Under the pieces are notes generated by a model, which saw only the letters and a list, made by a program, of their open reading frames with translations, was not told where the DNA came from and did no database searches. The position numbers and the translations under genes are program-made. Positions 48,416 to 63,520 of a stretch of 64,000 bases of DNA are shown piece after piece. Every line of letters begins with the position of its first letter. Position 1 is the first letter of the stretch. The stretch is from a virus: positions 779 to 64,778 of the IMG/VR virus record IMGVR_UViG_3300015063_000001; one strand, given 5' to 3'.

Positions 48416-51400
48416 ATGGCATCCCTTGATGACAGTGGCGATTGGGAAGACGTGTCTTCCCCTACGCCGCCTTCTGGTCTCAGCGCTGCGGCGCCATCGC
48501 CCCAACCTGCCGCCGCGCCGGCACAGGCCAAGGCGCCGGCCGCACAGGTGGCCGGCGGCGACGAATGGGAGGATGTCCCGCAGTGGCGGGGGTATCTGCC
48601 TGTCGCCGCGTCCGCCGTGGCCCAAAGTGCCGTTTCCTCGACTGGGTCTCTGCTCGCCGGCCTACCGGAACTGAGCGGGGACTATAATACCAAATTGCTG
48701 GCGAACCTCGATCGCATCGACCGCGGCGAAAAAGTGCCGATGGCTGATGACCCGATCGGCTATCAGGACATGGATCCTGAAACCCGCAAGCACACCAGGG
48801 CTGACGTCGAGGCGGCAAAGGCGGCTTACAAGCCGCAGGAAACGATGCTCTACAAAGCCGGCCACGCGATTAAAGAGTTCGGGGAAAAGCAGTTCCCGAT
48901 GTCGCTGGACGAACAGAAGTCGATCACGGCACAGGCTGCCGGCGTAGTCGGCGGCATGGCACCTTACCTCGCCGCCGGCGCTGTGCTCGGCCCAGAAGCC
49001 GCCGTAGGTCTCGGTATGGCCGGCATGGGCCTTTCCAGTGCCCATGAACAGGCGGAAGCCGCTCGAGCGAAAAACGCCTCGCCGGAAGCGGTGGCCGAAG
49101 CCGCGCGCATGGGCTTCTACAGTGGTGCCGCCGCGGGCGCGGTGCCGCTGCATGCCGTGATGACGCCGGTCGAACGGCTGGCGCCTGGCATCGCGGATTG
49201 GGCGCGGGCGCGGCTTCAACATGCGGCGCAGACCGGCGTTGCCTTTGCCACGCTTGGCGAAGCGCAGACCTGGCTCGGTCAACAGATCGCACAGAATTTT
49301 TATGATCCGGAGGCCGGCTACTCGCTCGATATTCAGCGCGTGCTCGGCGGCCTGCTCGGTGGTGCCTTCCTGGGTGGTATGGGTCGTACACCGTATCGCG
49401 GTGCCGAACAGCCGGCCGCGGAGAAGCCGAATCAGCACTCCGATGCCATTCAGGATATTCTCGGTGGTGAACCGCCTGGACCGCCAGCACCTCCTGGTGC
49501 TCCCGCTGTGGAGCCTGGAGAGCGTCGGCCGTACCCGGCCGAAGATGACGTTTCAATTCTCGGTGGCGATCGGCCAACCGGCGTTCCAAATGTCGACGAC
49601 TACGTTGACCAGTCGATGCGTAACCTTCGCGCGACGTCGCGCACGGTTGCCGGAACGCTGGATACCTCGTCGACCCCAGGCAAGGAAGAGAAGCTTGTTG
49701 ATGGCCTGACGCCCAAGGCTGCCGCGACACAGGCCGCCTCAAATTACGAAGGCATCGTTCGCCGGCTGTACGATTACAAAGACGATATCCCGACCACCGG
49801 CCCGGAAATGGGGACGCTGGTTAATGACGTCGCCGTTGCTGTAAACAATGGCATCGTCAAGCCGGGCCAGTTGGAGCGCACGACCAACACAAAATTCCCG
49901 ATGCAGACCAGGGCGGAGGATCTTCCGATTGCCTATGGTCAATTCTCTCAGGAATTGGCCGAGCGCCTTTCAAACCCTGCTGCGGATCCGGTCGAGACCG
50001 CGGCATGGATTGAATGGCGCGCAAACATGCTGGACCATTTCTGGACGGATGGCGTCGGCAAAACGTCGAAGGCGCTGGCGGCGATTCCTTTGATGCGGAG
50101 CGGCTTGCCGCTTCCGATCTATCCGCCGATGAAAGACTTTGTTGCGTTCGCCAAGGAACAGCCGCGCGTTGATCCGCTTGAAGGTGGCGCGGCATATCTC
50201 GGGCCGGCGTGGGAAAAATTCAATGCGTTCTACCACGACATGGTTTACCCGCAGAAAAGCCTGCAGGCCGCGCTTGATCGTGGGGCGACCGCCGACGAGC
50301 TAAGTCAGCATCCCATGGTGCTCAATGCCGTGGCGGAAAACAGCAGTCGTGTTCCAACCGGAACACCGGAGGATTTCCAGAACCCGGAATGGCGCAGCCA
50401 GCGCGTTTACAACATTAGTGGTCAGCCCGTCAGGGGTTGGGATGCCGCTGTTTCTGCCCTGACGAATCAGGCCAGCGCATATTCCGGTGGTCAGGTCGAG
50501 CATGGGCGCCATGCCGTCATTGTGCTCGGGCCCCCGGCTGCAGGCAAGTCGTCCATTTCGGAACCTGTTGCGCGGAAATATCGGGCCGCGATCGTTGACC
50601 CCGACGACGCGAAAAAGATCATTCCTGAATATCACAACGGCCTCGGCACCAGTGCTGTGCATGAGGAAAGCTCTGAACTCGCGATCGACGTCCTTAAGAA
50701 CATTGCGCGCGACGGTGGCAACATCGTCTTGCCAAAAGTAGGAGCGAGTGCCGATGGCATAAAGAAACTGGTTAACCGCTTGAAACAGTTGGGGTATACG
50801 GTCGATATCGCCCATGTGGCGGCTACACCAGAGATTTCGGCCCGGCGGAACATCGCTAGATTTCTGAATACCGGACGGCTTGTTAAGCCAGAATATATCA
50901 CTGAGGTAGGTGACAAGCCGCGCAAAACGGCCTATATGTTAAGGGGAGATGCAAATGACTTCATTGACGCCGACACATCCAAAGGCCACTACGAACTCGT
51001 CGAAGGAAACGGGCCGCTCGCCGACATTTTCCGAGATGGAAGAAATTTCGGACAAGGCGCAGATTCGGGCACTGGACGAGCTCTTGGCCGAGCGGAATCA
51101 GAAAAAGGACTGACCGGGGAGCAGGTCCCCGGCATTCCTGAACATCGCGTGACCGCTGCCGACGGCACGGCTATCGATGTCGCGCCGATCGTTGTCGAGG
51201 CATCGAGTCTCAGGACCTCTCAGGATCCCGGCTACGATACCAGCCTGCAGCCGCGGCAGCGCGATCGAGCCGCCAGCCAGGCACAGGTCCGCGACATCGC
51301 CACCAATCTCGACCCAGAACGTCTTGGCTATTCGGCCGAGGCTGATCGCGGGGCGCCGATTGTCGGACCTGACGGCATGGTGGAAAGCGGCAACGGCCGT

Positions 51401-54400
51401 GTGCTCGCGCTCCGAAGCGTTTACGAGCAAGGCGGACCGCAGGCACAGGCCTATCGGGATTGGCTGACGCGCCAGGGCGTCGACGTCTCCGGCTATCAGA
51501 ACCCGGTTTTGGTCCGGAAGCGCGTCACGCCGATGTCGCCACAGGAGCGGCGGTCGTTCACGGTCGCCGCGAACCAGGCCTCAACGCTCAGTATGTCGGC
51601 GCCGGAACGGGCGATGGCCGATGCGCGGCTGATGGATGCGCGGTCGATCGGCTTAATACGCAACGCAGAAGATATCGGCGCCCCTGCAAATCGTGACTTT
51701 GTTCGGCGTTTCGTTTCGCTGTTGCCGCAGGCTGAACAGGGGGCGATGGCTGATGCGCGCGGCGCCTTGTCGGCGGAAGGTCTGGCGCGGGTGCGTAATG
51801 CTGTGCTCGCGAAGGCCTACGGCGATGCTAGCGTTTTGGCGCGCATTGCGGAGTCGACGCACGATGAAGTCCGGTCGATTTCCAACGCCTTAACTGCCGC
51901 GGCGCCTGAGTGGGCGCGGATGCGCTCCGAAGTCGAGGCCGGCCGCGTCCGGTCTGATATGGACGCCACCCCTGATCTGCTCGAGGCAGTAAAGCGCACC
52001 GCAGATATTCGCAGCCGTGGCGAAAAGCTTGAAAACTATTTGGCGCAGCAAGACGCCTTCGACAAGATGCCGGCGCAGGTCGAGGCATTCATGCGAATGT
52101 TCTACGACCCGAAGGGCAATCGGGCAGCGGCGGCGATGCGGATTGCCCGCGCGCTGCGGCTCTATGCTCAAGAGGCTGCAAAAGTTAATGCCGATGAAGG
52201 GCTTGGTTTAGGCTTGGTCCCGGTGAAGCCGCGCGATATAACGCGGCTCGCCCTAGAACGGGAGTGGGAAGATTATGAACCAGATGCGGGAGTTTCCGAC
52301 CGCGGCGGCCTTGGTGACCGCACGGGCGGCGAAGAAGCTGGCCGGGCAGTACGGGGACCTTGGCTTGGCGAGGGCCGCAAAGGATCTCGAGAAGAGGGCT
52401 ATGGAGGCGATCAAGAATCGGCAGTCCGTGCTCAGCGACCAGAGCGCCCATTCAGCCTCAAAAACCTAACGACCGTTCCTGGTGTTGAGCAAGTCGATCT
52501 TGCCGGCGGGAAAAAGGGCGATCAATACGTCTTCCCAGGCACCGAAAAGATTTCCGCGGCCGAGCTTATGCGCCGGCGCGCGGCGGAGCCGATGCGGCCG
52601 AAGGTCGAGCAGAACACTACCGCTAGTGGCCTGTTCGGCGATGGGGCACAACAGCTAAGCCTGCTCGATGCCGCGAGGAAGGCTGCCGCAGAGCCCGTTG
52701 ACAAAGGTCCCATTGTACCCCAAATAGAGGGAACGGAGGCTGCAAATGCAAGTCGCGGAGAACCCGAAAGCGGCGGCATACGCACAGGAACACAAGAGGT
52801 TCCTGGAGGAAAACCGGCCGGACGTGCTCGCCGGGCTACGCCGATCGGGCGACCTGAACAGCTATCTCTCTTCGGTGGGGGAGCAGGCGAGCGATCTGTT
52901 TTTGACGCTAATGATGCAGTACAAAAACAGCCCGGAAATACGGAAGCTCCCGCACCTGGCGCTAGTACAAGCGTTACAAAGCCGCCGGAGGGAAGCCGAC
53001 GAGTTGGTGAGGCACGACATAATCCACCAGCCGTTGAAGGACTGAACGAAGCGCAGACCAAGATTGCGCAGCGCTCCCGCTCGAATTACCGAATTACTGA
53101 TGCCGACAAGATTGGCGAAGGTGGCCCGCGCCAGAAGATTCGCGGCAACCTCGAGGCAATCCGTATCCTCAAGACCATTGAGGATGAAAACCGCGATGCC
53201 ACGCCTGGCGAAAAGGCAGCCCTTGTGCAGTACGTCGGCTGGGGCGCCTTCGCGCAAGATATGTTCGCGCCGCACAAGACGGAATTGAAAGCGGAACGCG
53301 ATACGCTGCGATCGCTGGTCACCGATGAAGAGTTCAACGCGGCTCGAGGGTCTACACTAAACGCGCATTTCACGTCGCCTGACGTCGTCCGCGGCATGTG
53401 GGATGCCATCAATCATCTCGGCTATGACGGCGGGATGGCGATCGAGCCGGCGGCCGGCGTCGGCCATTTCATCGGCATGATCCCGGATAAGGTGGCGCCG
53501 AAGACGGCTTGGACGGCGGTTGAGCTCGACCCGCTTACCGGCCGTATCGCAAAGGCGCTCTACGGAAACGCCGAAGTCAACGTTCACGGCTTTGAGGACT
53601 TGAAGCGGCCATCGAACTATTACGATCTCGCGATCTCGAACGTTCCGTTCGGCAATTACAATATTTCGGAAAAGCCGTATGGCTCGTTTCCGATCCATGA
53701 TTTCTTTTTCGTCAAATCGCTCGACAAGGTTCGGCCCGGTGGCGTCGTCGCATTTGTGACGTCGCGCTACAGCATGGACCGCGTCGACGCCAACACGCGC
53801 CGGCTACTCGGCAAGACGGCCGATCTGGTCGGGGCCATCCGGTTACCTGGCGGCAACAAGGGCGCCTTTGCCGGCAATGCCGGGACGCAAGTCACCACCG
53901 ACGTCATGTTTCTTCGCAAGAAGATTCCGGGCGAGGCGCCGTTCCCCGGCGCCAACTGGTTTGACCTGAAAGAAATCCAAACCCCGGACGGCCCGACGAA
54001 AATCAACGAATATTTTGCCGATCATCCTGAAATGATGCTTGGTGAAATGCGGTTGCAGAGCACCATGTACCGGGACAATGAACCGGTGCTTATTGGTGAC
54101 GCCGAAGGCCTGCAGGACAGGATTGCCGCCGCGGCGCAAAACATGCCGAAGGGCGCCTTTGTCGCTCGCGACACCCCGCCGCCGCCGCCTATCCACGGCA
54201 ACGATATCGCGGCCGGCATCAAGGATGGCGCCTTCTTCTTGCAGGACGGCAAGCTGCACCAGCGCCGCGAGGGGCAGGGCTTTGCTCATCCGCTCAACGC
54301 GGAGGACCACGACCGCGTTACGCGGCTCGTCGGCATGCGCGACGTCGTCAACGATCTGTTGGCGACACAGCTTGCCGGCGGTGAGAACTCGGCAGCGCAA

Positions 54401-57400
54401 GCCGAACATGGCCGCGCCAAGCTGCGGGATGCTTATGATGCCTTTGTCGCCAAACACGGGCCGATCAATAAGGAAGAGCGCACCGTAACCAGCCGGCTTA
54501 ACAAGCTTGGCGAACCGGTGACAATCACTCGGTATCCGAACATCGCTAAGTTCATGGCGGATCCTGACGCTTGGAAAGTTGCGGCGATCGAGAACTACGA
54601 CACCGAGACCGGAAAGGCGAAGCGGGCCGATATCCAGACCAAGGATGTCATCGACGCGCCGATGGAACGCCAGATCAACGGGCCGTCCGATGCTCTGGCG
54701 GCTTCGTTGGACTTCACCGGCGGCGTCGATCTCGACCACATCGCACAGTCTCTCAATTTACAGACGCAGGAAGACGTCGTTCGCCATCTTGGCGATTTGG
54801 TCTACCAGAACCCGGACGGCCGGAAATGGGAGACCGCCGATAGTTACCTGTCCGGCGACGTGGTCAAGAAGCTTGATGATGCCCGCGCCATCGCCGCCGA
54901 AGACACGTCGTATATGCGCAACGTGTCAGCGCTCGAAAAGGTCCAGCCGGAGCCGTTGACCGGCTCAGACATCACGGCGCAGTTCGGGGCGCCATGGGTT
55001 CCAGGCGACGTCTACGAAAGCTTCCTCAAGGAAATCGGCGGTCAGGGCGTCAAGGTCAAGCTGGTCCCGTTGACCGGGGAATGGCGGTCAAGCGCCACGA
55101 TGTATTCCCGCGATGCCAGAGCAAAATATGGAACGGATCGTGTTGAGACAGCAAAGATAGTCGATGCCGCCCTCAACAATAGGCAGATCACGGTTTGGGA
55201 TGAGCACAGCGATGGAAGCAAGTCAGTCAACGAAAAGTCTACCACGGAAGCCAGGGTTAAGACCGAACTGCTGAAAGAGACGTTCACCGGCGACCAGGAA
55301 CACGGCATCGACGGCTGGGTGTTCGCAGATCCGGAGCGCGGCCAACGGTTGGAGGCGATCTACAATCGCACATACAACAACCTTGTGCAGCGCAAGTTCG
55401 ACGGCACGCACCTGACGCTGCCTGGGCTCAATCCTGATTTCGCGACACGCCAGCACCGCAAGGATGCAGTTTGGCGGATCGTCCAGAACGGCAACACGTT
55501 GCTTGCACACGACGTCGGGACTGGAAAAACCGCGACAATGATTGCGGCGGCGATGGAGCAAAAAAGACTTGGCTTAATTAATAAGCCGATGATGGTTGTT
55601 CCAAATCATATGTTGGAACAGTTCTCGCGCGAGTTTATCCAGGCGTATCCAGACGCTAAGATTTTGGTCGCGCAAAAAGACGAGATGACCAGGGAGAACC
55701 GCAAGGCGTTTCTGGCGCGCGTGGCGTCCAACGATTGGGACAGCGTCATCATTACGCATGATGCCTTCGGTCGCATTAACATGGGGCAGGAGTTCCGCAG
55801 GGCCTTCATCCGCGACCAACTCGACGAATTGGATCGGGCCATTAAGGCGGAAGCCGCTGAAAGCGATAAGAAGTCGCCGACGGTAAAGAGCTTGGAAAAG
55901 GCAAAAAAGAAGCTGCAGGGGCGGCTTGAAAATTTGATGAATGAAGAGCGCAAGGATGCTGGGACCAATTTTGAAGAATCCGGCGTCGATAATCTCTTCA
56001 TCGATGAAGCGCATTGCTTCCCATACAATACGATGGTCCAGACAGATCGCGGTCCAATCAAAATTGGTGAGATCGTTGAGAGGCAACTATCGGTTTCTGT
56101 CGCCAGCATAGATCACCGGACCGGTCGCCTTATATGGAATCCGATCCACAATTATTGGCGGCACAATCGCGGCAATAAGCAGTTTGTGCTTGTAAAAACC
56201 GATAAATCTGACATACTTTGCACAGTCAATCATCGAGTATTTGTGGATGGGCGAGGGTATGTCAGGGCAGATGAAATCAAGCCGGGAGAGGCTTTGCGCG
56301 CTTTGCCAGAGGCCGTTTGTGCCAGCGTCGCGCGGCAGACTTGGGAATACCCAGAAGCATTGCTCGCGCCAGTGTGCGAAAACGGCAGCCAAGAAACTAG
56401 TAGAAAAGAATTGCGAACTGTGCGGCGAGCCGTTTCAGTTTCGCAGTTCTGGAAAGACGAACAACGACAAGCGACGGTTTTGCGGCAGTCCATGTGCGGC
56501 GTCATGGCGGATGGCGCAGCCTGGGCGGATGGAGAAGTCCGCGCCGATGTGGGCCGCTTCGCGGAAGAAATGGTTGGAGCCAGAATACAAGGCCATGATG
56601 GCGTCGGCATCATCAAAAAGAATGCTTGCCGACAACCCGATGTCAAACGCGGATATCCGGCAGAAAGTCAGCGTGTCGCTGAGCGGGCGGACTTTTCTAT
56701 CTCGCGGCGGCAACGGCCAGCCGACGAAGCCGCAGTTGCTACTGCATGGCTTGACCGGTCTTCCCATGGAATATGCAATACTGACGAAGCCAGTGCACGG
56801 TCGATTTCAGAGTCTGCCGCAATGCTACAAGGTGGATTTGGCGGACCCGGTGCGCAAGTTGGCTATAGAGGTGGACGGCAACAGCCATCGTTCTCGGAAA
56901 TGGAAGTTTCTGGACCGACGCAAGACAGAAATACTGAATGCGCTCGGGTGGTCAGTGTTGAGATTCTCGAACGAGGAAGTGATCGCGAACCCAGAACTGG
57001 TGGTTCAGAAGATAGCTTCGTTTATGATCTCGGCGTCGCCGGCGAGCACAATTATTTCGCCAATGGAGTCCTAGTCCACAACTCGTTCAAGAACCTAGCT
57101 TTTATAACTCGTATGCAGCGCGTCAAGGGCTTGGCGCAGGGTGATAGCCAGCGCGCCGAAGACCTGTTCCTCAAGATTCAATACTTGGAACAGAAGCGGC
57201 CGGGGCGAGCGGCGGTGTTTGCCACCGGGACGCCGGTCTCTAACACGATGGCCGAGCTTTGGACGATGCAGCGGTATTTGAACCTGCGTGCGTTGAAAGA
57301 GCGCGGACTGGATACGTTCGATTCCTGGGCTTCGACCTTCGGCCGCGTCGTCAACAATATGGAATTGTCGGCTGACGGTCGCACCTTCAAGGAGGTGTCG

Positions 57401-60400
57401 TCGTTCTCGAAGTTTGTCAACGTGCCGGAACTGGTGTCTCTGTATTCAGAGATCGCAGATACAAAAACGGCGGACATGCTGAAACTGCCGACGCCGGATG
57501 TCAAAACCCGCAGCGGGGCGCCCGGCATCGAGATCGTCCAGGCGGAGCCTTCTTCCCAGGAAGAAGCGCACATCCAGAAATTGGTCGAACTCGCGGAATC
57601 GCTCAAAGGCAAGCGCCCTGAAAAGGGCCAGCCGAACATGCTGAGCGTGGTGACGGAAGGCCGCAAGGTCGCCACCGATGGTCGGCTGATTTCGCCTGAT
57701 TTTGATTTCAACCCGCAGGGCAAGATCGCCCTGGGCGTCAACAATATCCATCGCATATGGGAAGAGGGCAACGCTGACCCGTCGGCGCCGAACAAGGTGC
57801 AGATGGTGTTCCTCGACATGGGCGTACCGAAGAGCAAGGCCGCGGCAAAGAAGAAGCCGGCTGACGTCGATCTCGAGGAAGGTGCCGACCCGGCACAGGA
57901 AGCGGCGCCGCGCATCGACCTGTACGCCGACATCAAGAAGCGCCTTGTCGACGCCGGCATCCCGGCGAAAGAGATCGCAGCAATTCATGACGCGACGGAC
58001 GACGACAAGAAGGCAAAACTGTTCCAGAAGGTCCGCAACGGTGAAGTCCGGGTTATCTTGGGATCATCCGGAAAGATGGGCGTCGGCACAAACGTCCAAG
58101 ACAAACTTATCGCGATGCACCACTTTGACGCACCGTGGAAGCCAGCGGATGTCACGCAGCGCGACGGCCGTATCGTGCGGCAAGGCAACAAGAATAAGGA
58201 CGTGCAGATCTACCGCTATGTCACGAAGCGCTCTTTCGACGCCTTCATGTGGCAGAAGCTTGACACCAAATCGAAGTTTATCGGGCAGGTTTTGTCGGGG
58301 GCGAAGGGCTCCCGCCACGCCGAAGACATCGACAACCCGCTGCCGGAAGCTGCGGAAATGAAGGCGGCCGCGTCTGGTGACCCGCGGATTATAGAGCACG
58401 CCGAACTCGATCGCCAGGTCCGCGCCTTGTCGGCGCAGCGTAGATCGTTTGACGCGACGAAATCGCGGGCGCAGTGGGAAACCGGAACGGCAAAAACCCG
58501 TATTCAGGGATACGAGGACGCATTGCCGAACGCCAAGGCCGATGCTGCCAGCGTGCAGGATTTGGCCGGCGACAAGTTTAGCGCTGAGCTCGGCGGCTCG
58601 GTGGTGACTGATCGCAAGGTGGCCGGGCAGGCAATCCTAGATCGGTTATTGGCTGTTGATGCCCGCACCTTCTACACGCCGAAGATTGTCACGCTCGGCA
58701 AGCTGTCCGGCTTCGATATGAACGTCGAACTGCGTGGCGGCTGGGATGGCTCGTCGGCCATTCTGCGGGCGCAGCCGTCACTCAAAGGCAAGAGCGGCTA
58801 CGGCACGCCGAACGATACGGTCATTAATGCGCAGACCGATCCCGGCGGCTTGATCCGCCGGTTTGAAAATATCCTCGGTAACATCCGGCAGAACCCGGAC
58901 CGGTTGGAACGCGAGTTGGCCGGCGAAAAGGACAGCGTTGCGAAACTCGAAAAGACCTTGGGCGAGACATGGCCGAAGGAAAATGATTACCGCGCCGCGC
59001 TGGATAAGCTTCATGCGCTGAGCGAGTCGTTGAAGGCGCCGAAGCATCCCGACGTCTTTACGGAAGAGGTGAAGGAGCGCCGCGGCGGCTGGGATCAGGC
59101 CGAAGGCCGCGACATGGGCCCGAAGCTTGGCGAGACCGCCGTTCGTATCGGGGCAAAAACGGAAGCCCATATCAAGCCGACCGAGCGCTACACGGCGGCT
59201 GAGAAAAAGATTGCCAACGCTGTTGCCGAGATCGGTCAGCGCATGGCGCCGCAGGCCGACGTCAGGGGCGCAGCCGCGCTCCGGCAGAACGGCAATCAGA
59301 TATGGGGTGCCTTCGTCAACAGCGAGGCCTTCCCGCACCTTGTCGCGTGGTCTCTCGAAAAGGGCAGTCCGGCCCAGATTGCCGGCACGGTGCGCCATGA
59401 AATTGTCCATCATCTCCGTGAGGCCGGTTTGATCCGTCCGAACGAATGGGCGGCATTACGCGATGCGGCGGTCAAGGATGACTGGCTCGGCAAGCATAAC
59501 ATCGAGGACCGCTATCCGGACCTTTCAATGGACCGCAAGGTGGAAGAAGCCGTTGCCGAACAGTTCTCAAAATGGCGCACTGAACGGTCGATCGAAAAGC
59601 CAGGCCTGATCCGGGACGCCTTCCAGCGGATCGAATTGCTGTTCCGCCGTGTGGCTGCGGCGGCGCGCAGCTTCATGGGCAAGGATGCCACCGCCAATGA
59701 CGTCTTCACTAGGATTGAAACCGGCGAAGTCGGCGCTCGCCATTCCGACCAGATCGAGGCGCAGAAGCGGTATTTGGCACAAGACAACCGCGAGGCCGCG
59801 CAGACGCCGGGCGAAGAGAACCGGAAGCGGCGCGAGTTTGCGCGCGGTTTGCCCGGCGCGGAGCCGACCATTCGTGATAGGATAGTGCAGGCTGCCGATG
59901 CTCTGCGGGCTAAGGCGGCCGAGTTCTCTGAGAAGATTGGCGTCGATCAAATCGTCCGTGACATGCAGATGCGCGTGGCGCCGATGGCGGCGCGTGACGC
60001 CACCGTGCAGTCCCGCGCGATCGCCAAGGAGTTCATCAACGCGCGCCGGCAATCCAGGCAATCCTGGAATGCCGCCGACAAATACATCATGGACAATTTC
60101 CCGCCGGAGCGCCGCAAGGCTATGTGGGATGCCGCTGACGAGCAAAGCGTTGCGATGCAGCGCGGCCGGTCGACGGTGGGGATCGGCCTCGACCGTCTGC
60201 CACCGGATGAACGGCGTGTTGTCGAAATGCTGCAGGCCCGTGGTGAGCGCAATCTGAAAGACGCCAACGATCTCGGTATGATCGAAAGCGAAGGCCTTCC
60301 GAGCTACGCGCCGCGCATGGTGGTCCGCATGGCGGAAGGCAAATACGAGCATGGGGCTGGCCCCGGTGCCGAAGTGGTTCGTGACGTCCGAACCTTGGCG

Positions 60401-63400
60401 CTCGCCAACGCACGGCTCGAAGACGCCATTGCGGCGCGGCGCCTTATCAACTCTATCGAGGAAGTCGGCAAAAGGAGTGGTAACCCGACCGTCAACGATG
60501 GCGGGGCTCCGACGCGCAAGATTGGTGCGGAAGGCCAAATCGCGAATGTTCTCGACCAGATCGGTCGCGGCGTCTCGACGTCGACGCCGCAGTTGAAGCA
60601 CCGCAAGTATCTGACGACGGAAGAAACCGAAGCGGCGGCCAATAAGGTTCCGGTGGCCGATAAGAATGCCCCGGATTGGTTCACGCTCAATCACCCGGCG
60701 TTTACGAAGCTTATGCCGCGCATGACCGACTCTGACCCGAAAACCTATCGGGATGCAGTCAAGCGCGTCAGCGGCATGACCGTCGAAAACAAGCAGGTCC
60801 CGGCCCGCGATGAAGACGGCAATATCATCTATGACCGCAAGCCGATTTACGTCCGGGCCGATTTCGAGGGTCCGCTTCGCGCCGTTCTTTCCAAGGACAC
60901 CGACCGCACCTACCGCGCCTTGATGGCCCTCAAGGGCAAGGTGATGTCGGTTATCATGATGTCGCCGCTTATCCACAATCAAGTGGAATGGGGCCGCGCG
61001 CTGCCGGTGGCACCTGGCAAGGTGGTCACGTTCCAGACCTATCTCGAGGGCAACAAGGTTGCCAACGATCCGAAACTTATGAACCGCGCCATTGCTGGTG
61101 GCGTCGTCCCGATCGGCGGACACGGCTATATGCAGGATATCGTGTCGATCGCGGAAGCGCCGACGGTGCGGCCTGGCCGGTCGTTGACGGCCAAGGGCTT
61201 GGGCTACGGCGCCGAAGGCCTCGGGTATCTGACGCGGCTTTATAACCCGCGCTCAGGCGCTAATGAAGTTCGCAATGCCGTCGATTGGTTCGGAAACGTT
61301 TGGCACAACCGGATGCTTTGGGACCGCATTCGTGACCTGCAAATGGGTCTGTGGTCGCACGTCAATGAAACTATGGTCGGTAAAGGATATGATCCTTATA
61401 GCGCCAACGTGGCGGCGGCACACTTTGCAAACCGATATGCCGGCGCACTGCCGATTGAAGCGATGTCTGGCATCGCCCGCGGCATTGCCAACGTCTTGCT
61501 GTTCTCGCGGAGCTTCACGCTCGGCAACCTAGGCGCCTACAAGGACGCCATCCTCGGGCTGCCGCGTGACGCACAGGCGATGATCCAGCAAAACGTCGGA
61601 TACGCCGAATTACAGAAGGTTCAGAGTTACGTGAAACGAAAGTCGCTGGCGATGCTGGCGATCGACGCCGGGCTTTATTACGCGACATTGTCGGCCCTGC
61701 AGAGCGCGTTCAACGTGGCCGGCGTCGGCCATACCGTCAGCACGCTCGGCGGCATGATTGCCGGCGGCGCCCTTGGCGGCAAAGGCGGCACGTTCGGCCG
61801 GTTGGCTGCGGCGGCGGGTATGGGCGCGGCCGGGTTCGGGCTTGCCAGCGTTCTCGGCGCGTCAAAGGGTACCCGCGATCTTGAGGACGAGCTCGGCCGG
61901 TACTGGACCAGGTTCTCCGATCTGCTTGGTCGTGTTGGCGAGCATCCGTTTGAAACGATTGGCAACCCGTTCAAGATGCTGGAGTCGCTCGGCTCGACTG
62001 CGGAAAATGAGCCCGGCAAGAAGAGCCGCCTGCTGATCGGCTACCAGCCTGACGGCACGGCGATCTACGCGCGCCTCGCGGTCGGCAAGGTCACAGAAGA
62101 GTTGATGGGCTACATGACCGAGCCGAACGAGATGCTTCATCGTAAGCTGAGCACCTTCGCCAGACCGTTGTCGCAACTTTATAATAACGACGCCGGCTTT
62201 GGGCATCCGGTGTATGACAAAAAAGCTGATACGCCGTACGCTGTCACGAAGAACATTATCAAAATTGCCGCCCTGATTGTCGGTGACCAGATACCGGTCG
62301 ACACCATCAAGGGTGCCATGGACTGGTACGGCGGCGGACCGGGCTCCGAAGTGTCTGGCATGAAGGCGATCGCGCCGTTCATCGGCACGACGATCTCAAA
62401 GGGCTTCCCTGGTGGGCCCGAGCTCGGCGTATTGCAGGACGCAAAGGATCGGCAGAAATACCGAGTGCAGGAAGCGTTGCCCGGCATCCGCGAGCAAATC
62501 AAAAAGGGCGATACCGAAGGCGCAGTAGCCAAGATGGAAGAACTGCATATCCCGCGCGGGCTGCAGGGCTACTACATTCGCACGACGCAAGACCCGGCAT
62601 CGCGGCTCTCCAAGCGCGAGATGCACGATTTCATGCAATACGCCTCGCCGGACGAACAGCGCGAGTATGAGAACACGCAGCGGAACAGGCCGACTACGGA
62701 CGGCTCGGCACCGAAGCGCGCCGATGGCGGAAAGGTGGAGGCTGACTACGACACCGCGCTAACGCCGGATGAAGAGGCAAGCTTCCAACAGTGGAAGGCG
62801 GACAATGCACCGCACGATTCTGGCGCGGACTATGACCTCCGTGGTGCGTTCAAGGCCGGCCTGTCGCCCGCCGCCGATGGTCATTGGGATGACACCTTCA
62901 AAAAGCCGAACCATCCGACTTTCAGCATCTATTCCAAATATGCGAAGGATCGGCCGGAGTTGGCCGGGACATGGAATGGCGATCAATACATCCCGCCCGT
63001 TCCTGCCCGCGCGCACGGCGGCCGCGTCGAGGCGGCAAACATCAATCACAATCCGACTGAGGCGCAGAAGCACGCCGGCAACTACGCAAAAGATCACGTA
63101 AGAATCCACGGCCACGACATCACCATCGAGAACGCCAAAGGCAAACGCCGGCACGGCGTTGGTCAAGACGGCAAGCCATGGTCCGCCGTGCTCGGGGCAC
63201 ACTACGGGTATTTTAAAAAATCTGAGGCCAGAGATGGCGATCATGTCGACTGCTACCTCGGCCCGCACATCAAGTCCCCGCACGTCTTTGCCATCGATCA
63301 AGTCGACCACAGGACCGGCAAATACGACGAAGCAAAAATCTGTCTTGGTTTCGCAAACGAAAAGCAGGCGTTGCGCGCCTATGAGGCCGGGTTCTCGGAT

Positions 63401-63520
63401 GGCAAAGGCCGCGATCGCATCGGCAAGGTGCACGCTATGACCGTGCCGCAGTTCCGCGCGTGGCTGAAACACGGCGATACAAAGCGGCCGTTCCGGCATG
63501 TGGAGACGGCCGAAACCTAA
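48416..63520 (+). CDS. giant (5034 aa) virion-associated polyvalent protein: Fic-like, zeta-toxin-like kinase, ddrB-ParB, N6-adenine methyltransferase plus SNF2 helicase (DarB-like, with intein), zincin metallopeptidase, InPase-like
   Basis: HFWTDGVGKTSK; GPPAAGKS; VESGNGR; EPAAGVG and NVPFG; HDVGTGKT and DEAH; RHEIVHH...EEAVA; PTEAQKHAGNY...DGDHVDCY. Confidence 0.92.
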   Translation: MASLDDSGDWEDVSSPTPPSGLSAAAPSPQPAAAPAQAKAPAAQVAGGDEWEDVPQWRGYLPVAASAVAQSAVSSTGSLLAGLPELSGDYNTKLLANLDRIDRGEKVPMADDPIGYQDMDPETRKHTRADVEAAKAAYKPQETMLYKAGHAIKEFGEKQFPMSLDEQKSITAQAAGVVGGMAPYLAAGAVLGPEAAVGLGMAGMGLSSAHEQAEAARAKNASPEAVAEAARMGFYSGAAAGAVPLHAVMTPVERLAPGIADWARARLQHAAQTGVAFATLGEAQTWLGQQIAQNFYDPEAGYSLDIQRVLGGLLGGAFLGGMGRTPYRGAEQPAAEKPNQHSDAIQDILGGEPPGPPAPPGAPAVEPGERRPYPAEDDVSILGGDRPTGVPNVDDYVDQSMRNLRATSRTVAGTLDTSSTPGKEEKLVDGLTPKAAATQAASNYEGIVRRLYDYKDDIPTTGPEMGTLVNDVAVAVNNGIVKPGQLERTTNTKFPMQTRAEDLPIAYGQFSQELAERLSNPAADPVETAAWIEWRANMLDHFWTDGVGKTSKALAAIPLMRSGLPLPIYPPMKDFVAFAKEQPRVDPLEGGAAYLGPAWEKFNAFYHDMVYPQKSLQAALDRGATADELSQHPMVLNAVAENSSRVPTGTPEDFQNPEWRSQRVYNISGQPVRGWDAAVSALTNQASAYSGGQVEHGRHAVIVLGPPAAGKSSISEPVARKYRAAIVDPDDAKKIIPEYHNGLGTSAVHEESSELAIDVLKNIARDGGNIVLPKVGASADGIKKLVNRLKQLGYTVDIAHVAATPEISARRNIARFLNTGRLVKPEYITEVGDKPRKTAYMLRGDANDFIDADTSKGHYELVEGNGPLADIFRDGRNFGQGADSGTGRALGRAESEKGLTGEQVPGIPEHRVTAADGTAIDVAPIVVEASSLRTSQDPGYDTSLQPRQRDRAASQAQVRDIATNLDPERLGYSAEADRGAPIVGPDGMVESGNGRVLALRSVYEQGGPQAQAYRDWLTRQGVDVSGYQNPVLVRKRVTPMSPQERRSFTVAANQASTLSMSAPERAMADARLMDARSIGLIRNAEDIGAPANRDFVRRFVSLLPQAEQGAMADARGALSAEGLARVRNAVLAKAYGDASVLARIAESTHDEVRSISNALTAAAPEWARMRSEVEAGRVRSDMDATPDLLEAVKRTADIRSRGEKLENYLAQQDAFDKMPAQVEAFMRMFYDPKGNRAAAAMRIARALRLYAQEAAKVNADEGLGLGLVPVKPRDITRLALEREWEDYEPDAGVSDRGGLGDRTGGEEAGRAVRGPWLGEGRKGSREEGYGGDQESAVRAQRPERPFSLKNLTTVPGVEQVDLAGGKKGDQYVFPGTEKISAAELMRRRAAEPMRPKVEQNTTASGLFGDGAQQLSLLDAARKAAAEPVDKGPIVPQIEGTEAANASRGEPESGGIRTGTQEVPGGKPAGRARRATPIGRPEQLSLFGGGAGERSVFDANDAVQKQPGNTEAPAPGASTSVTKPPEGSRRVGEARHNPPAVEGLNEAQTKIAQRSRSNYRITDADKIGEGGPRQKIRGNLEAIRILKTIEDENRDATPGEKAALVQYVGWGAFAQDMFAPHKTELKAERDTLRSLVTDEEFNAARGSTLNAHFTSPDVVRGMWDAINHLGYDGGMAIEPAAGVGHFIGMIPDKVAPKTAWTAVELDPLTGRIAKALYGNAEVNVHGFEDLKRPSNYYDLAISNVPFGNYNISEKPYGSFPIHDFFFVKSLDKVRPGGVVAFVTSRYSMDRVDANTRRLLGKTADLVGAIRLPGGNKGAFAGNAGTQVTTDVMFLRKKIPGEAPFPGANWFDLKEIQTPDGPTKINEYFADHPEMMLGEMRLQSTMYRDNEPVLIGDAEGLQDRIAAAAQNMPKGAFVARDTPPPPPIHGNDIAAGIKDGAFFLQDGKLHQRREGQGFAHPLNAEDHDRVTRLVGMRDVVNDLLATQLAGGENSAAQAEHGRAKLRDAYDAFVAKHGPINKEERTVTSRLNKLGEPVTITRYPNIAKFMADPDAWKVAAIENYDTETGKAKRADIQTKDVIDAPMERQINGPSDALAASLDFTGGVDLDHIAQSLNLQTQEDVVRHLGDLVYQNPDGRKWETADSYLSGDVVKKLDDARAIAAEDTSYMRNVSALEKVQPEPLTGSDITAQFGAPWVPGDVYESFLKEIGGQGVKVKLVPLTGEWRSSATMYSRDARAKYGTDRVETAKIVDAALNNRQITVWDEHSDGSKSVNEKSTTEARVKTELLKETFTGDQEHGIDGWVFADPERGQRLEAIYNRTYNNLVQRKFDGTHLTLPGLNPDFATRQHRKDAVWRIVQNGNTLLAHDVGTGKTATMIAAAMEQKRLGLINKPMMVVPNHMLEQFSREFIQAYPDAKILVAQKDEMTRENRKAFLARVASNDWDSVIITHDAFGRINMGQEFRRAFIRDQLDELDRAIKAEAAESDKKSPTVKSLEKAKKKLQGRLENLMNEERKDAGTNFEESGVDNLFIDEAHCFPYNTMVQTDRGPIKIGEIVERQLSVSVASIDHRTGRLIWNPIHNYWRHNRGNKQFVLVKTDKSDILCTVNHRVFVDGRGYVRADEIKPGEALRALPEAVCASVARQTWEYPEALLAPVCENGSQETSRKELRTVRRAVSVSQFWKDEQRQATVLRQSMCGVMADGAAWADGEVRADVGRFAEEMVGARIQGHDGVGIIKKNACRQPDVKRGYPAESQRVAERADFSISRRQRPADEAAVATAWLDRSSHGICNTDEASARSISESAAMLQGGFGGPGAQVGYRGGRQQPSFSEMEVSGPTQDRNTECARVVSVEILERGSDREPRTGGSEDSFVYDLGVAGEHNYFANGVLVHNSFKNLAFITRMQRVKGLAQGDSQRAEDLFLKIQYLEQKRPGRAAVFATGTPVSNTMAELWTMQRYLNLRALKERGLDTFDSWASTFGRVVNNMELSADGRTFKEVSSFSKFVNVPELVSLYSEIADTKTADMLKLPTPDVKTRSGAPGIEIVQAEPSSQEEAHIQKLVELAESLKGKRPEKGQPNMLSVVTEGRKVATDGRLISPDFDFNPQGKIALGVNNIHRIWEEGNADPSAPNKVQMVFLDMGVPKSKAAAKKKPADVDLEEGADPAQEAAPRIDLYADIKKRLVDAGIPAKEIAAIHDATDDDKKAKLFQKVRNGEVRVILGSSGKMGVGTNVQDKLIAMHHFDAPWKPADVTQRDGRIVRQGNKNKDVQIYRYVTKRSFDAFMWQKLDTKSKFIGQVLSGAKGSRHAEDIDNPLPEAAEMKAAASGDPRIIEHAELDRQVRALSAQRRSFDATKSRAQWETGTAKTRIQGYEDALPNAKADAASVQDLAGDKFSAELGGSVVTDRKVAGQAILDRLLAVDARTFYTPKIVTLGKLSGFDMNVELRGGWDGSSAILRAQPSLKGKSGYGTPNDTVINAQTDPGGLIRRFENILGNIRQNPDRLERELAGEKDSVAKLEKTLGETWPKENDYRAALDKLHALSESLKAPKHPDVFTEEVKERRGGWDQAEGRDMGPKLGETAVRIGAKTEAHIKPTERYTAAEKKIANAVAEIGQRMAPQADVRGAAALRQNGNQIWGAFVNSEAFPHLVAWSLEKGSPAQIAGTVRHEIVHHLREAGLIRPNEWAALRDAAVKDDWLGKHNIEDRYPDLSMDRKVEEAVAEQFSKWRTERSIEKPGLIRDAFQRIELLFRRVAAAARSFMGKDATANDVFTRIETGEVGARHSDQIEAQKRYLAQDNREAAQTPGEENRKRREFARGLPGAEPTIRDRIVQAADALRAKAAEFSEKIGVDQIVRDMQMRVAPMAARDATVQSRAIAKEFINARRQSRQSWNAADKYIMDNFPPERRKAMWDAADEQSVAMQRGRSTVGIGLDRLPPDERRVVEMLQARGERNLKDANDLGMIESEGLPSYAPRMVVRMAEGKYEHGAGPGAEVVRDVRTLALANARLEDAIAARRLINSIEEVGKRSGNPTVNDGGAPTRKIGAEGQIANVLDQIGRGVSTSTPQLKHRKYLTTEETEAAANKVPVADKNAPDWFTLNHPAFTKLMPRMTDSDPKTYRDAVKRVSGMTVENKQVPARDEDGNIIYDRKPIYVRADFEGPLRAVLSKDTDRTYRALMALKGKVMSVIMMSPLIHNQVEWGRALPVAPGKVVTFQTYLEGNKVANDPKLMNRAIAGGVVPIGGHGYMQDIVSIAEAPTVRPGRSLTAKGLGYGAEGLGYLTRLYNPRSGANEVRNAVDWFGNVWHNRMLWDRIRDLQMGLWSHVNETMVGKGYDPYSANVAAAHFANRYAGALPIEAMSGIARGIANVLLFSRSFTLGNLGAYKDAILGLPRDAQAMIQQNVGYAELQKVQSYVKRKSLAMLAIDAGLYYATLSALQSAFNVAGVGHTVSTLGGMIAGGALGGKGGTFGRLAAAAGMGAAGFGLASVLGASKGTRDLEDELGRYWTRFSDLLGRVGEHPFETIGNPFKMLESLGSTAENEPGKKSRLLIGYQPDGTAIYARLAVGKVTEELMGYMTEPNEMLHRKLSTFARPLSQLYNNDAGFGHPVYDKKADTPYAVTKNIIKIAALIVGDQIPVDTIKGAMDWYGGGPGSEVSGMKAIAPFIGTTISKGFPGGPELGVLQDAKDRQKYRVQEALPGIREQIKKGDTEGAVAKMEELHIPRGLQGYYIRTTQDPASRLSKREMHDFMQYASPDEQREYENTQRNRPTTDGSAPKRADGGKVEADYDTALTPDEEASFQQWKADNAPHDSGADYDLRGAFKAGLSPAADGHWDDTFKKPNHPTFSIYSKYAKDRPELAGTWNGDQYIPPVPARAHGGRVEAANINHNPTEAQKHAGNYAKDHVRIHGHDITIENAKGKRRHGVGQDGKPWSAVLGAHYGYFKKSEARDGDHVDCYLGPHIKSPHVFAIDQVDHRTGKYDEAKICLGFANEKQALRAYEAGFSDGKGRDRIGKVHAMTVPQFRAWLKHGDTKRPFRHVETAET
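50949..51113 (+). CDS. nested +1-frame ORF overlapping the end of the zeta domain (candidate antitoxin)
   Basis: SD AAGGGGAG before ATG 50949/50955; MQMTSLTPTHPKATTNSSKETGRSPTFSEMEEISDKAQIRALDELLAERNQKKD* (manual translation). Confidence 0.55.
   Translation: MQMTSLTPTHPKATTNSSKETGRSPTFSEMEEISDKAQIRALDELLAERNQKKD
52275..52469 (+). CDS. nested +1-frame ORF, small helical protein
   Basis: 53 of 64 codons end in G/C in this frame, versus about half in the host frame; GGAG upstream. Confidence 0.65.
   Translation: MNQMREFPTAAALVTARAAKKLAGQYGDLGLARAAKDLEKRAMEAIKNRQSVLSDQSAHSASKT
52746..53045 (+). CDS. nested +1-frame TnpV-like protein
   Basis: SD GGAGG with 6-nt spacer; Y...HKRFLEENRP...L..SGDL..YL..V.EQA...A.E.V..DII fits the TnpV pattern. 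Confidence 0.75.
   Translation: MQVAENPKAAAYAQEHKRFLEENRPDVLAGLRRSGDLNSYLSSVGEQASDLFLTLMMQYKNSPEIRKLPHLALVQALQSRRREADELVRHDIIHQPLKD
56015..57082 (+). mobile_element. class 1 intein (356 aa) inserted directly after the helicase DEAH motif
   Basis: Block A CFPYNTMV, block B CTVNH, block F VYDLGV...HNYFANG, block G VLVHN/S; removal restores IDEAH-SFKNL. Confidence 0.93.
56241..57074 (+). CDS. zinc-ribbon plus Vsr/DUF559-like endonuclease in the +1 frame, entirely inside the intein
   Basis: CALC, CSRQC, CELC, CGSPC; YKVDLAD...LAIEVDGNSH...DRRKTEILNALGWSVLRFSNEEV; alternative ATG starts at 56259 and 56271. Confidence 0.85.
   Translation: MWMGEGMSGQMKSSRERLCALCQRPFVPASRGRLGNTQKHCSRQCAKTAAKKLVEKNCELCGEPFQFRSSGKTNNDKRRFCGSPCAASWRMAQPGRMEKSAPMWAASRKKWLEPEYKAMMASASSKRMLADNPMSNADIRQKVSVSLSGRTFLSRGGNGQPTKPQLLLHGLTGLPMEYAILTKPVHGRFQSLPQCYKVDLADPVRKLAIEVDGNSHRSRKWKFLDRRKTEILNALGWSVLRFSNEEVIANPELVVQKIASFMISASPASTIISPMES

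Follow-up and report, generated by a model that had tools for sequence, protein, structure and literature searches.

The epsilon/PezA-type antitoxins act by blocking the ATP site of Zeta kinases (PMC3062530). In the ng_epsilon1/ng_zeta1 pair of Neisseria gonorrhoeae (PDB 6EPG/6EPH), the antitoxin has a fold unrelated to that of epsilon, is extended and non-globular, and covers the ATP site of its toxin (PMC5923241). Zeta-like kinases have been reported in polyvalent proteins and MuF fusions (PMC5512222), and a small ORF located right after a MuF toxin domain has been proposed to confer immunity (PMC5576092). Neither PMC5576092 nor PMC5512222 mentions an out-of-frame ORF inside a Zeta-like domain, and we found no description of such a gene in the literature. 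Here we analyze a small ORF that overlaps, out of frame, the 3′ end of a Zeta-like kinase domain in a giant phage gene. The interpretation we lean towards is that 50955-51113 constitutes a separate gene, with its own Shine-Dalgarno (SD) sequence and ATG, encoding an inhibitor that binds the kinase.

The window, by which we mean the whole stretch of 64,000 nucleotides analyzed here, is part of an 81.6-kb virus record. The gene that hosts the small ORF (Table 1) encodes, in this order, a Zeta_toxin-like kinase, a ddrB-ParB domain, an N6-methylase/SNF2 helicase region with an intein, and a C-terminal InPase (Pfam). The intein splits the ResIII/SNF2 helicase parts of the protein; at approximately 56000-57100 (host residues about 2547-2890), motif II of the SNF2 helicase is broken by it (Pfam Intein_splicing). 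As read from its sequence, the product of 48416..63520 is a polyvalent protein as defined in PMC5512222, not a MuF protein. In contrast to MuF toxins, the kinase is internal in this phage's protein rather than C-terminal, and a MuF domain was not seen in the seven relatives scanned, the N-termini of which are cut by the edge of the locus.

The kinase domain scored 65 bits against Pfam PF06414 (Zeta_toxin; cutoff 22.3), and its profile matched zeta (1GVN_B) at 1.3e-8 and PezT at 3e-5. An AlphaFold2 (AF2) model of residues 660-874 reached a pLDDT of 93.9 and a pTM of 0.90, and its top eight Foldseek matches were PezT and zeta (TM 0.66-0.74). By Pfam, profile and fold, the domain is therefore a Zeta/PezT-type kinase like those of the epsilon/zeta and PezA/PezT systems (PDB 1GVN, 3Q8X, 2P5T), with the difference that zeta is a free toxin, whereas the kinase analyzed here is one domain of a 5,034-aa virion protein. 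The Walker A motif GPPAxGKS, D69/D71 and the lid arginines R152 and R156 are invariant in 63 aligned sequences (chain numbering, in which chain residue n is host residue n+659), and D71 aligns with D67, the catalytic Asp of zeta. Because the Walker A motif, D71 and the lid arginines are kept, and the fold is closest to PezT and zeta, the kinase looks active. Zeta/PezT kinases are characterized by toxicity and by phosphorylation of the UDP-sugar precursors of the cell wall.

Table 1 Features of the host gene and of the candidate nested gene (window coordinates).
Feature	Position	Strand	Description
Host gene, polyvalent phage protein	48416..63520	+	5,034 codons, single ORF
Zeta/PezT-type P-loop kinase domain	50393..51037	+	Host residues 660-874; Pfam, profile, AF2, Foldseek
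Pfam Zeta_toxin match	50513-50908	+	Host residues 700-831
Shine-Dalgarno-like AAGGGGAG	50941..50948	+	6 nt before ATG 50955
Nested gene (probable start)	50955..51113	+	52 codons + TGA, +1 frame of host
N-terminal half of nested protein	50955..51017	+	Residues 1-21
C-terminal half of nested protein	51018..51095	+	Residues 22-47
Host-frame linker, kinase to ddrB-ParB	51032..51112	+	Residues 873-899
ddrB-ParB domain of host protein, next downstream	51161..51523	+	Residues 916-1036; Pfam

The first-pass annotation of this DNA had pointed to a short sequence followed by ATG CAA ATG, opening a 54-aa ORF over the last strands of the kinase domain. We confirmed that AAGGGGAG is present and is followed by ATG CAA ATG at 50949-50957, and that the ORF 50949..51113 (54 codons plus TGA) exists in the +1 frame of the host gene, spanning host residues 845-899. 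In the AlphaFold model, its first part overlaps the final two strands and the final helix of the kinase; the part of the kinase lying under it corresponds to chain residues 190-214, and the rest of the ORF lies over the Gly-rich linker. The proposed length, however, probably has to be shortened. ATG 50949, two codons upstream of ATG 50955, is unique to this phage and abuts the SD with a spacing of 0 nt, whereas 50955 is conserved in relatives. For these reasons, we place the start of the nested gene at 50955, with a product that is probably 52 aa long; from there, the gene overlaps the last 28 codons of the kinase domain plus the linker. The host frame spells the region of AAGGGGAG in the rare codons TTA AGG GGA, and a +1-frame stop (TAA, 50940-50942) shuts the frame just upstream of the nested gene. 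A convincing internal promoter for the nested gene was looked for, and none was found. The final base of the nested TGA is also the first base of a GC-rich hairpin (51113-51133), which has an 8-bp stem and a 5-nt loop and, on the + strand, lacks a T-run.

The two halves of the predicted protein differ in character. Residues 1-21 are rich in Ser, Thr, Lys and Pro, and the conserved end of the kinase domain determines their sequence. Residues 22-47 comprise an acidic SEMEEI-type motif and an amphipathic helix, and over them the host frame reads a variable, indel-rich, Gly/Arg-rich linker. In relatives, neighbouring domains are exchanged (domain shuffling) at this same linker, which separates the kinase from ddrB-ParB. 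In Rz/Rz1 of phage lambda, a small gene that has a start of its own is contained wholly in a larger one, in the +1 frame of the latter, and the two products bind each other. The locus resembles Rz/Rz1 in that a whole conserved ORF lies inside another gene, in another frame and with its own start. In contrast, the proteins and their function (envelope disruption in lambda) are unrelated, and the embedded gene described here straddles a domain border and also occurs partly overlapping or free-standing.

We rejected the openness of the frame in this stretch as evidence for a gene. Under a synonymous-codon null, which takes the host amino-acid sequence and codon usage as given, the +1 frame is open here with a probability of about 0.63, and the region around the ORF, in DNA of 60% G+C, holds dozens of overlapping ORFs of 40-100 codons. 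What places the nested ORF above chance is thus the comparative evidence. This was drawn from the DNA of full-length relatives at 53-78% identity, about 160 metagenomic or viral loci and 72 bacterial-genome loci. Using clusters at 55% identity or less, with failing clusters included, and a null built from the host protein sequence and codon usage, we found that 22 of 25 clusters were fully open for 50 codons, against 8.6 expected (P 1.9e-12, Poisson-binomial). The two halves of the ORF were each significantly open separately (P 6.8e-9 and 3.7e-8). Stops in the +1 frame of the relatives occurred at 0-0.008 per codon over codons 0-50, compared with about 0.06 on either side, and no comparable stop desert was present in their +2 frame. 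The stop-free stretch begins at the ATG, which argues for initiation at this codon; the enrichment for an SD was modest (15 of 21 clusters, 10.2 expected).

Of 83 distinct relatives, about 70 have a matching +1 ORF that starts in the same alignment column and remains open for 52-74 codons; these extend to a kinase identity of 34% and include AT-rich marine contigs. The conserved start arises as A-ATG-x from the host codons AAT-GAC or GAT-GGN. Purine-rich, SD-like sequence precedes it, and in most cases the +1 frame has a stop 0-6 codons upstream of it. The lineages without this canonical start (L098, L113, L131, L143, L130 and L088) use a nearby ATG or GTG, the latter in one relative, and L029/L165 have, instead of the nested start, a downstream gene that starts at the host stop.

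These observations bear on a different explanation, namely that there is no separate gene and that programmed +1 frameshifting from the host frame yields a truncated protein ending in a helical tail. As the example of prfB shows, +1 shifting can be stimulated by an SD-like sequence inside a gene, and conservation of the C-half would also be expected for such a product. However, the N-half is significantly open alone, no conserved slippery or hungry-codon site is visible, and in most relatives a +1 stop lies 0-6 codons upstream of the conserved ATG, where the stop desert starts sharply. In addition, the orphan copies described below keep the ATG and the SD without the upstream kinase frame. The orphans and the sharp start of the stop desert therefore argue against a frameshift product, which we consider extremely improbable.

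Next, we analyzed selection on the +1 frame. Among close pairs, the differences at host positions 1/2/3 were 264/172/945 in the upstream kinase (host ORF truly continuing), 59/29/129 in the nested N-half and 188/126/131 in the C-half. The counts for the N-half indicate that it is doubly constrained. In the C-half, the wobble signature shifts, and the most variable position is position 3 of the +1 frame. The sequences of the phage's own clade are too diverged for the pair test, and here we scanned synonymous differences over the whole gene, using six full-length genes. Across the 15-kb host gene, the scan had a mean of 0.53 (sd 0.10), and only three regions fell to 0.29 or less: 50891-51100, 52226-52495 and 52691-53065, each on a +1 ORF. 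The first corresponds to the nested ORF plus its SD (minimum 0.278, z -2.5) and is shallower than the other two (z about -4.5), which are the deepest of the host gene, with minima of 0.089 and 0.068, and coincide with the +1 ORFs 52275-52469 and 52746-53045. Since the synonymous troughs coincide with +1 ORFs, this comparison of sequences indicates that the giant gene is host to at least three selected nested genes. Weaker dips (0.37-0.39) were seen in the giant gene at 55751-55960, 57356-57460, 57746-57865 and 60911-61105. Between this phage and its relative L001, the difference at host position 3 was 0.60 per codon upstream, 0.25 and 0.29 inside the halves, and 0.46 downstream. In the linker, all three codon positions change at about half the neutral rate, so it is not an unconstrained spacer.

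The same data allowed us to weigh whether the ORF might not be translated at all, with an RNA element or chance accounting for the low synonymous change and a linker rich in codons starting with G accounting for the open frame. This would fit the G+C-rich clade, in which the probability of an open frame is 0.63-0.95, and the presence of a hairpin after the nested stop. It would also fit the BLOSUM62 scores of the three frames, which between clusters did not favour +1, the Gly-rich host frame coming out on top by composition, which makes these scores uninformative; within the clade, +1 was slightly favoured. By contrast, the frame stays open in AT-rich relatives, for each of which P is 0.003-0.3, the wobble signature passes to the +1 frame, the synonymous trough matches the borders of the ORF, and the ORF persists past the host stop and as orphan genes. 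We consequently regard an untranslated ORF as very unlikely. We are largely confident that the nested ORF is a real gene.

Judging from the loci compared, the position of the small gene with respect to the kinase domain stays constant, irrespective of what comes after it. In five loci, among them L146, L060, L073 and L062, it continues 30-35 codons beyond the stop of the kinase gene, and in seven it ends within 1-7 codons of that stop. In most marine loci, the nested gene lies 20-100 codons before the host stop, and in the phage's own clade it is found deep in giant genes, thousands of codons from the end. It accompanies the domain in short C-terminal fusions and giant polyvalent proteins alike, from soil alphaproteobacterial phages to marine, gut and sediment phages. 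The extension of the small gene past the kinase-gene stop in L146, L060 and L062 is reminiscent of the MuF toxin/immunity arrangement.

Gene finders almost never call the nested gene. Profile searches matched 11 proteins in 5.8 billion clusters, and the profile of the peptides of the window type matched 32 representatives in 1.84 billion proteins, several of which share the SEMEEI-type motif. L169 was considered as a free-standing copy and rejected, as it is a frameshifted assembly of the usual arrangement; P0132 and L169 are both frameshift chimeras of the host and nested frames, cases in which an assembly error or an indel has led a gene caller to expose the small ORF. At both the DNA and the protein level, phage and plasmid collections yielded no close relatives, only ParB or distant kinase matches, and a single-sequence scan of viral contigs gave no match. 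The profile of the marine nested peptides barely detects those of the window clade, and that of the marine C-half does not detect them, so the homology of the working half across the family is positional only. Such positional conservation of the C-half could hide convergent or fast-evolving tails.

Beyond this family, the nested ORF was absent from cyanophage PSS2, Bacteroides phage DAC16, the Firmicutes 'VDGFSKW' group and the free-standing Zeta toxins of Chitinophaga and Fictibacillus. The absence from these more distant Zeta domains makes the ORF clade-specific, not a general companion of Zeta domains. The expectation of the first-pass annotation that the ORF would be conserved after homologous domains therefore holds across the kinase clade (the 22 of 25 clusters above) but not further. 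Similarly, of the free-standing gene pair that it had suggested looking for, the small gene was found past the kinase stop and as orphans, while the free-standing Zeta toxins examined do not have the ORF. From this distribution, the nested gene looks like a partner specific to this phage clade of Zeta-like domains. Among Firmicutes prophages, a Zeta-like clade without the +1 ORF (L189, L191-L197 and L199-L201) carries an in-frame helical tail after the kinase. By analogy, this tail could conceivably be a cis-acting equivalent of the nested peptide; E. coli EzeT is an example of a cis-acting tail on a Zeta-like kinase. In Halovirus HCTV-1 (L167, gene 109), an open stretch of about 75 codons (about 1890-2120) follows the Zeta domain in the +1 frame, and its peptide ends in an acidic-helical stretch whose EWMEED motif recalls some of the versions in bacterial phages; given the G+C-rich DNA, this may be chance.

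Orphan copies of the small gene were found in bacterial chromosomes, at L243:3001-3168 (identical to L244) and in L248 (minus strand, locus 1501-1662). In these, the small ORF and its SD are intact, and the kinase is deleted except for the approximately 40 codons that overlap the small gene. One orphan, P0151, which is among the 32 profile-matched representatives, is a free-standing 55-codon gene on a 465-kb bacterial contig, between copper-oxidase and pirin genes, and of its kinase frame only the last ~40 codons survive around the small gene. A second orphan resides in a Rhodobacterales genome; as matches were obtained in 2 of 401 sampled Rhodobacterales genomes, orphan copies are rare there. 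The copies in L243/L244 and L248 are possibly immunity genes captured by the host. P0142, a small gene of the window type, lies free on its contig between an HD_4-family gene (HD phosphohydrolase domain, Pfam PF13328) and a ddrB-ParB gene, which is separate, encodes 264 aa and lies just downstream; no kinase was called nearby. The arrangement on this contig looks as if a polyvalent protein had been split into separate genes and had lost its kinase.

Next, we analyzed whether the nested protein could bind the kinase, a complex prediction that the first-pass annotation had suggested. The prediction placed the helical half of the peptide on the active-site face of the kinase. The ipSAE values were 0.81/0.80/0.82, compared with 0.02 for the best of three controls, using alignments for both chains; such custom alignments fall outside the calibration of the tool, in which 58 of 80 solved complexes, but also 2 of 110 mismatched pairs, attained this ipSAE level. 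At least 84% of contacts are common to the runs, with a partner pLDDT of 64. In the complex model, confident contacts come from peptide residues 22-47 and none from residues 1-21. The kinase residues contacted are 48 (P-loop), 68/70, 87, 90-91, 94-106, 113-133 and 164-171; these include helices 86-106 and 120-132, the P-loop, and residues 68 and 70 beside the catalytic Asp. Part of the score may come from solved Zeta-antitoxin complexes that the model had already learned. On this modelling, we consider it reasonably probable that the nested protein binds the kinase, while the chances that it acts as an inhibitor or antidote appear to us evenly balanced.

The nested gene could instead be translated into a protein that is not an inhibitor, such as a folding or packaging chaperone, a kinase activator, or a partner of another part of the host protein, for example ddrB-ParB. 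All the evidence for its status as a gene fits such a function equally well, the binding to the active-site face comes from a model, and the free-standing P0142 directly precedes a distinct ddrB-ParB gene, with no called kinase as its neighbour. In contrast, the association tracks the kinase clade, and most marine relatives pair the small gene with the kinase domain without ParB. The predicted contacts at the P-loop and at the flanks of the catalytic Asp also suit occlusion better than chaperoning. We therefore view a function other than inhibition as rather unlikely.

If the nested protein is an inhibitor, our model would be as follows. Ribosomes would start on the nested gene at its own SD and ATG and read it in the frame that is +1 to the giant polyvalent gene. 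The first half of the nested gene would be carried along by the conserved end of the kinase domain, and the second half would be the working part, with the acidic motif and the amphipathic helix written over the host-frame linker. The small protein is predicted to bind the kinase domain encoded by the same DNA, covering the face that carries the P-loop and the catalytic Asp. In the cell producing the virion protein, the kinase would thereby be silenced, just as Zeta toxins are silenced by their partners epsilon, PezA and ng_epsilon1. In this model, we infer both the toxicity of the kinase and the timing of the loss of the inhibitor. A phage that is growing lytically has a less obvious need of an antidote than a plasmid, which counts against an antidote function.

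How would such an inhibitor compare with the described antitoxins? As with epsilon and PezA, a small co-encoded protein is predicted, here by modelling, to cover the face of the nucleotide site. Nevertheless, searches against Pfam, PHROG and PDB chains revealed no similarity of the nested peptide to epsilon or to the C-domain of PezA. The nested peptide belongs to no Pfam or PHROG family, and against PDB chains, ng_epsilon1 included, nothing was found at E values up to 10 save one chance match. Epsilon and PezA are 90-aa three-helix bundles encoded upstream of the toxin gene, whereas the nested protein has 52 aa, in which a disordered leader precedes a single predicted binding helix, and is encoded out of frame within the 3′ end of the kinase. 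The peptide is modelled in a non-globular manner similar to that of ng_epsilon1, but there is no sequence match between them, ng_zeta1 ranks only 31st among the fold matches of the kinase, and ng_epsilon1 is a separate gene. The proposal of the first-pass annotation that the ORF is a candidate antitoxin is thus retained in part: a conserved, selected gene is tied to the end of a kinase that keeps its catalytic residues, and binding at the active site is predicted, but similarity to epsilon or PezA is lacking. We do not uphold its further proposal of a captured toxin-antitoxin pair of the known kind, given the position over the 3′ end of the toxin domain, unlike that in epsilon-zeta operons, and the lack of sequence similarity.

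If the nested protein is an inhibitor, it would represent a third, unrelated solution to the neutralization of Zeta toxins, and it would illustrate how an enzyme that poisons the cell wall can be made part of a virion protein while the factory of the phage itself is spared. Domain and antidote would move as one piece of DNA during domain shuffling, and the frame of the antidote would be reused as an interdomain linker. More speculatively, and with only a modest chance of being right in our estimation, out-of-frame antidotes over the ends of toxin-like domains could be widespread and unannotated in phage virion and polyvalent proteins, with the bacterial orphans providing immunity to the injected kinase. 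Were this the case, the same small gene would serve both as self-protection for the phage and as a defence captured by the host. Judging from the orphans in bacteria, hosts may have a simple way to acquire immunity.
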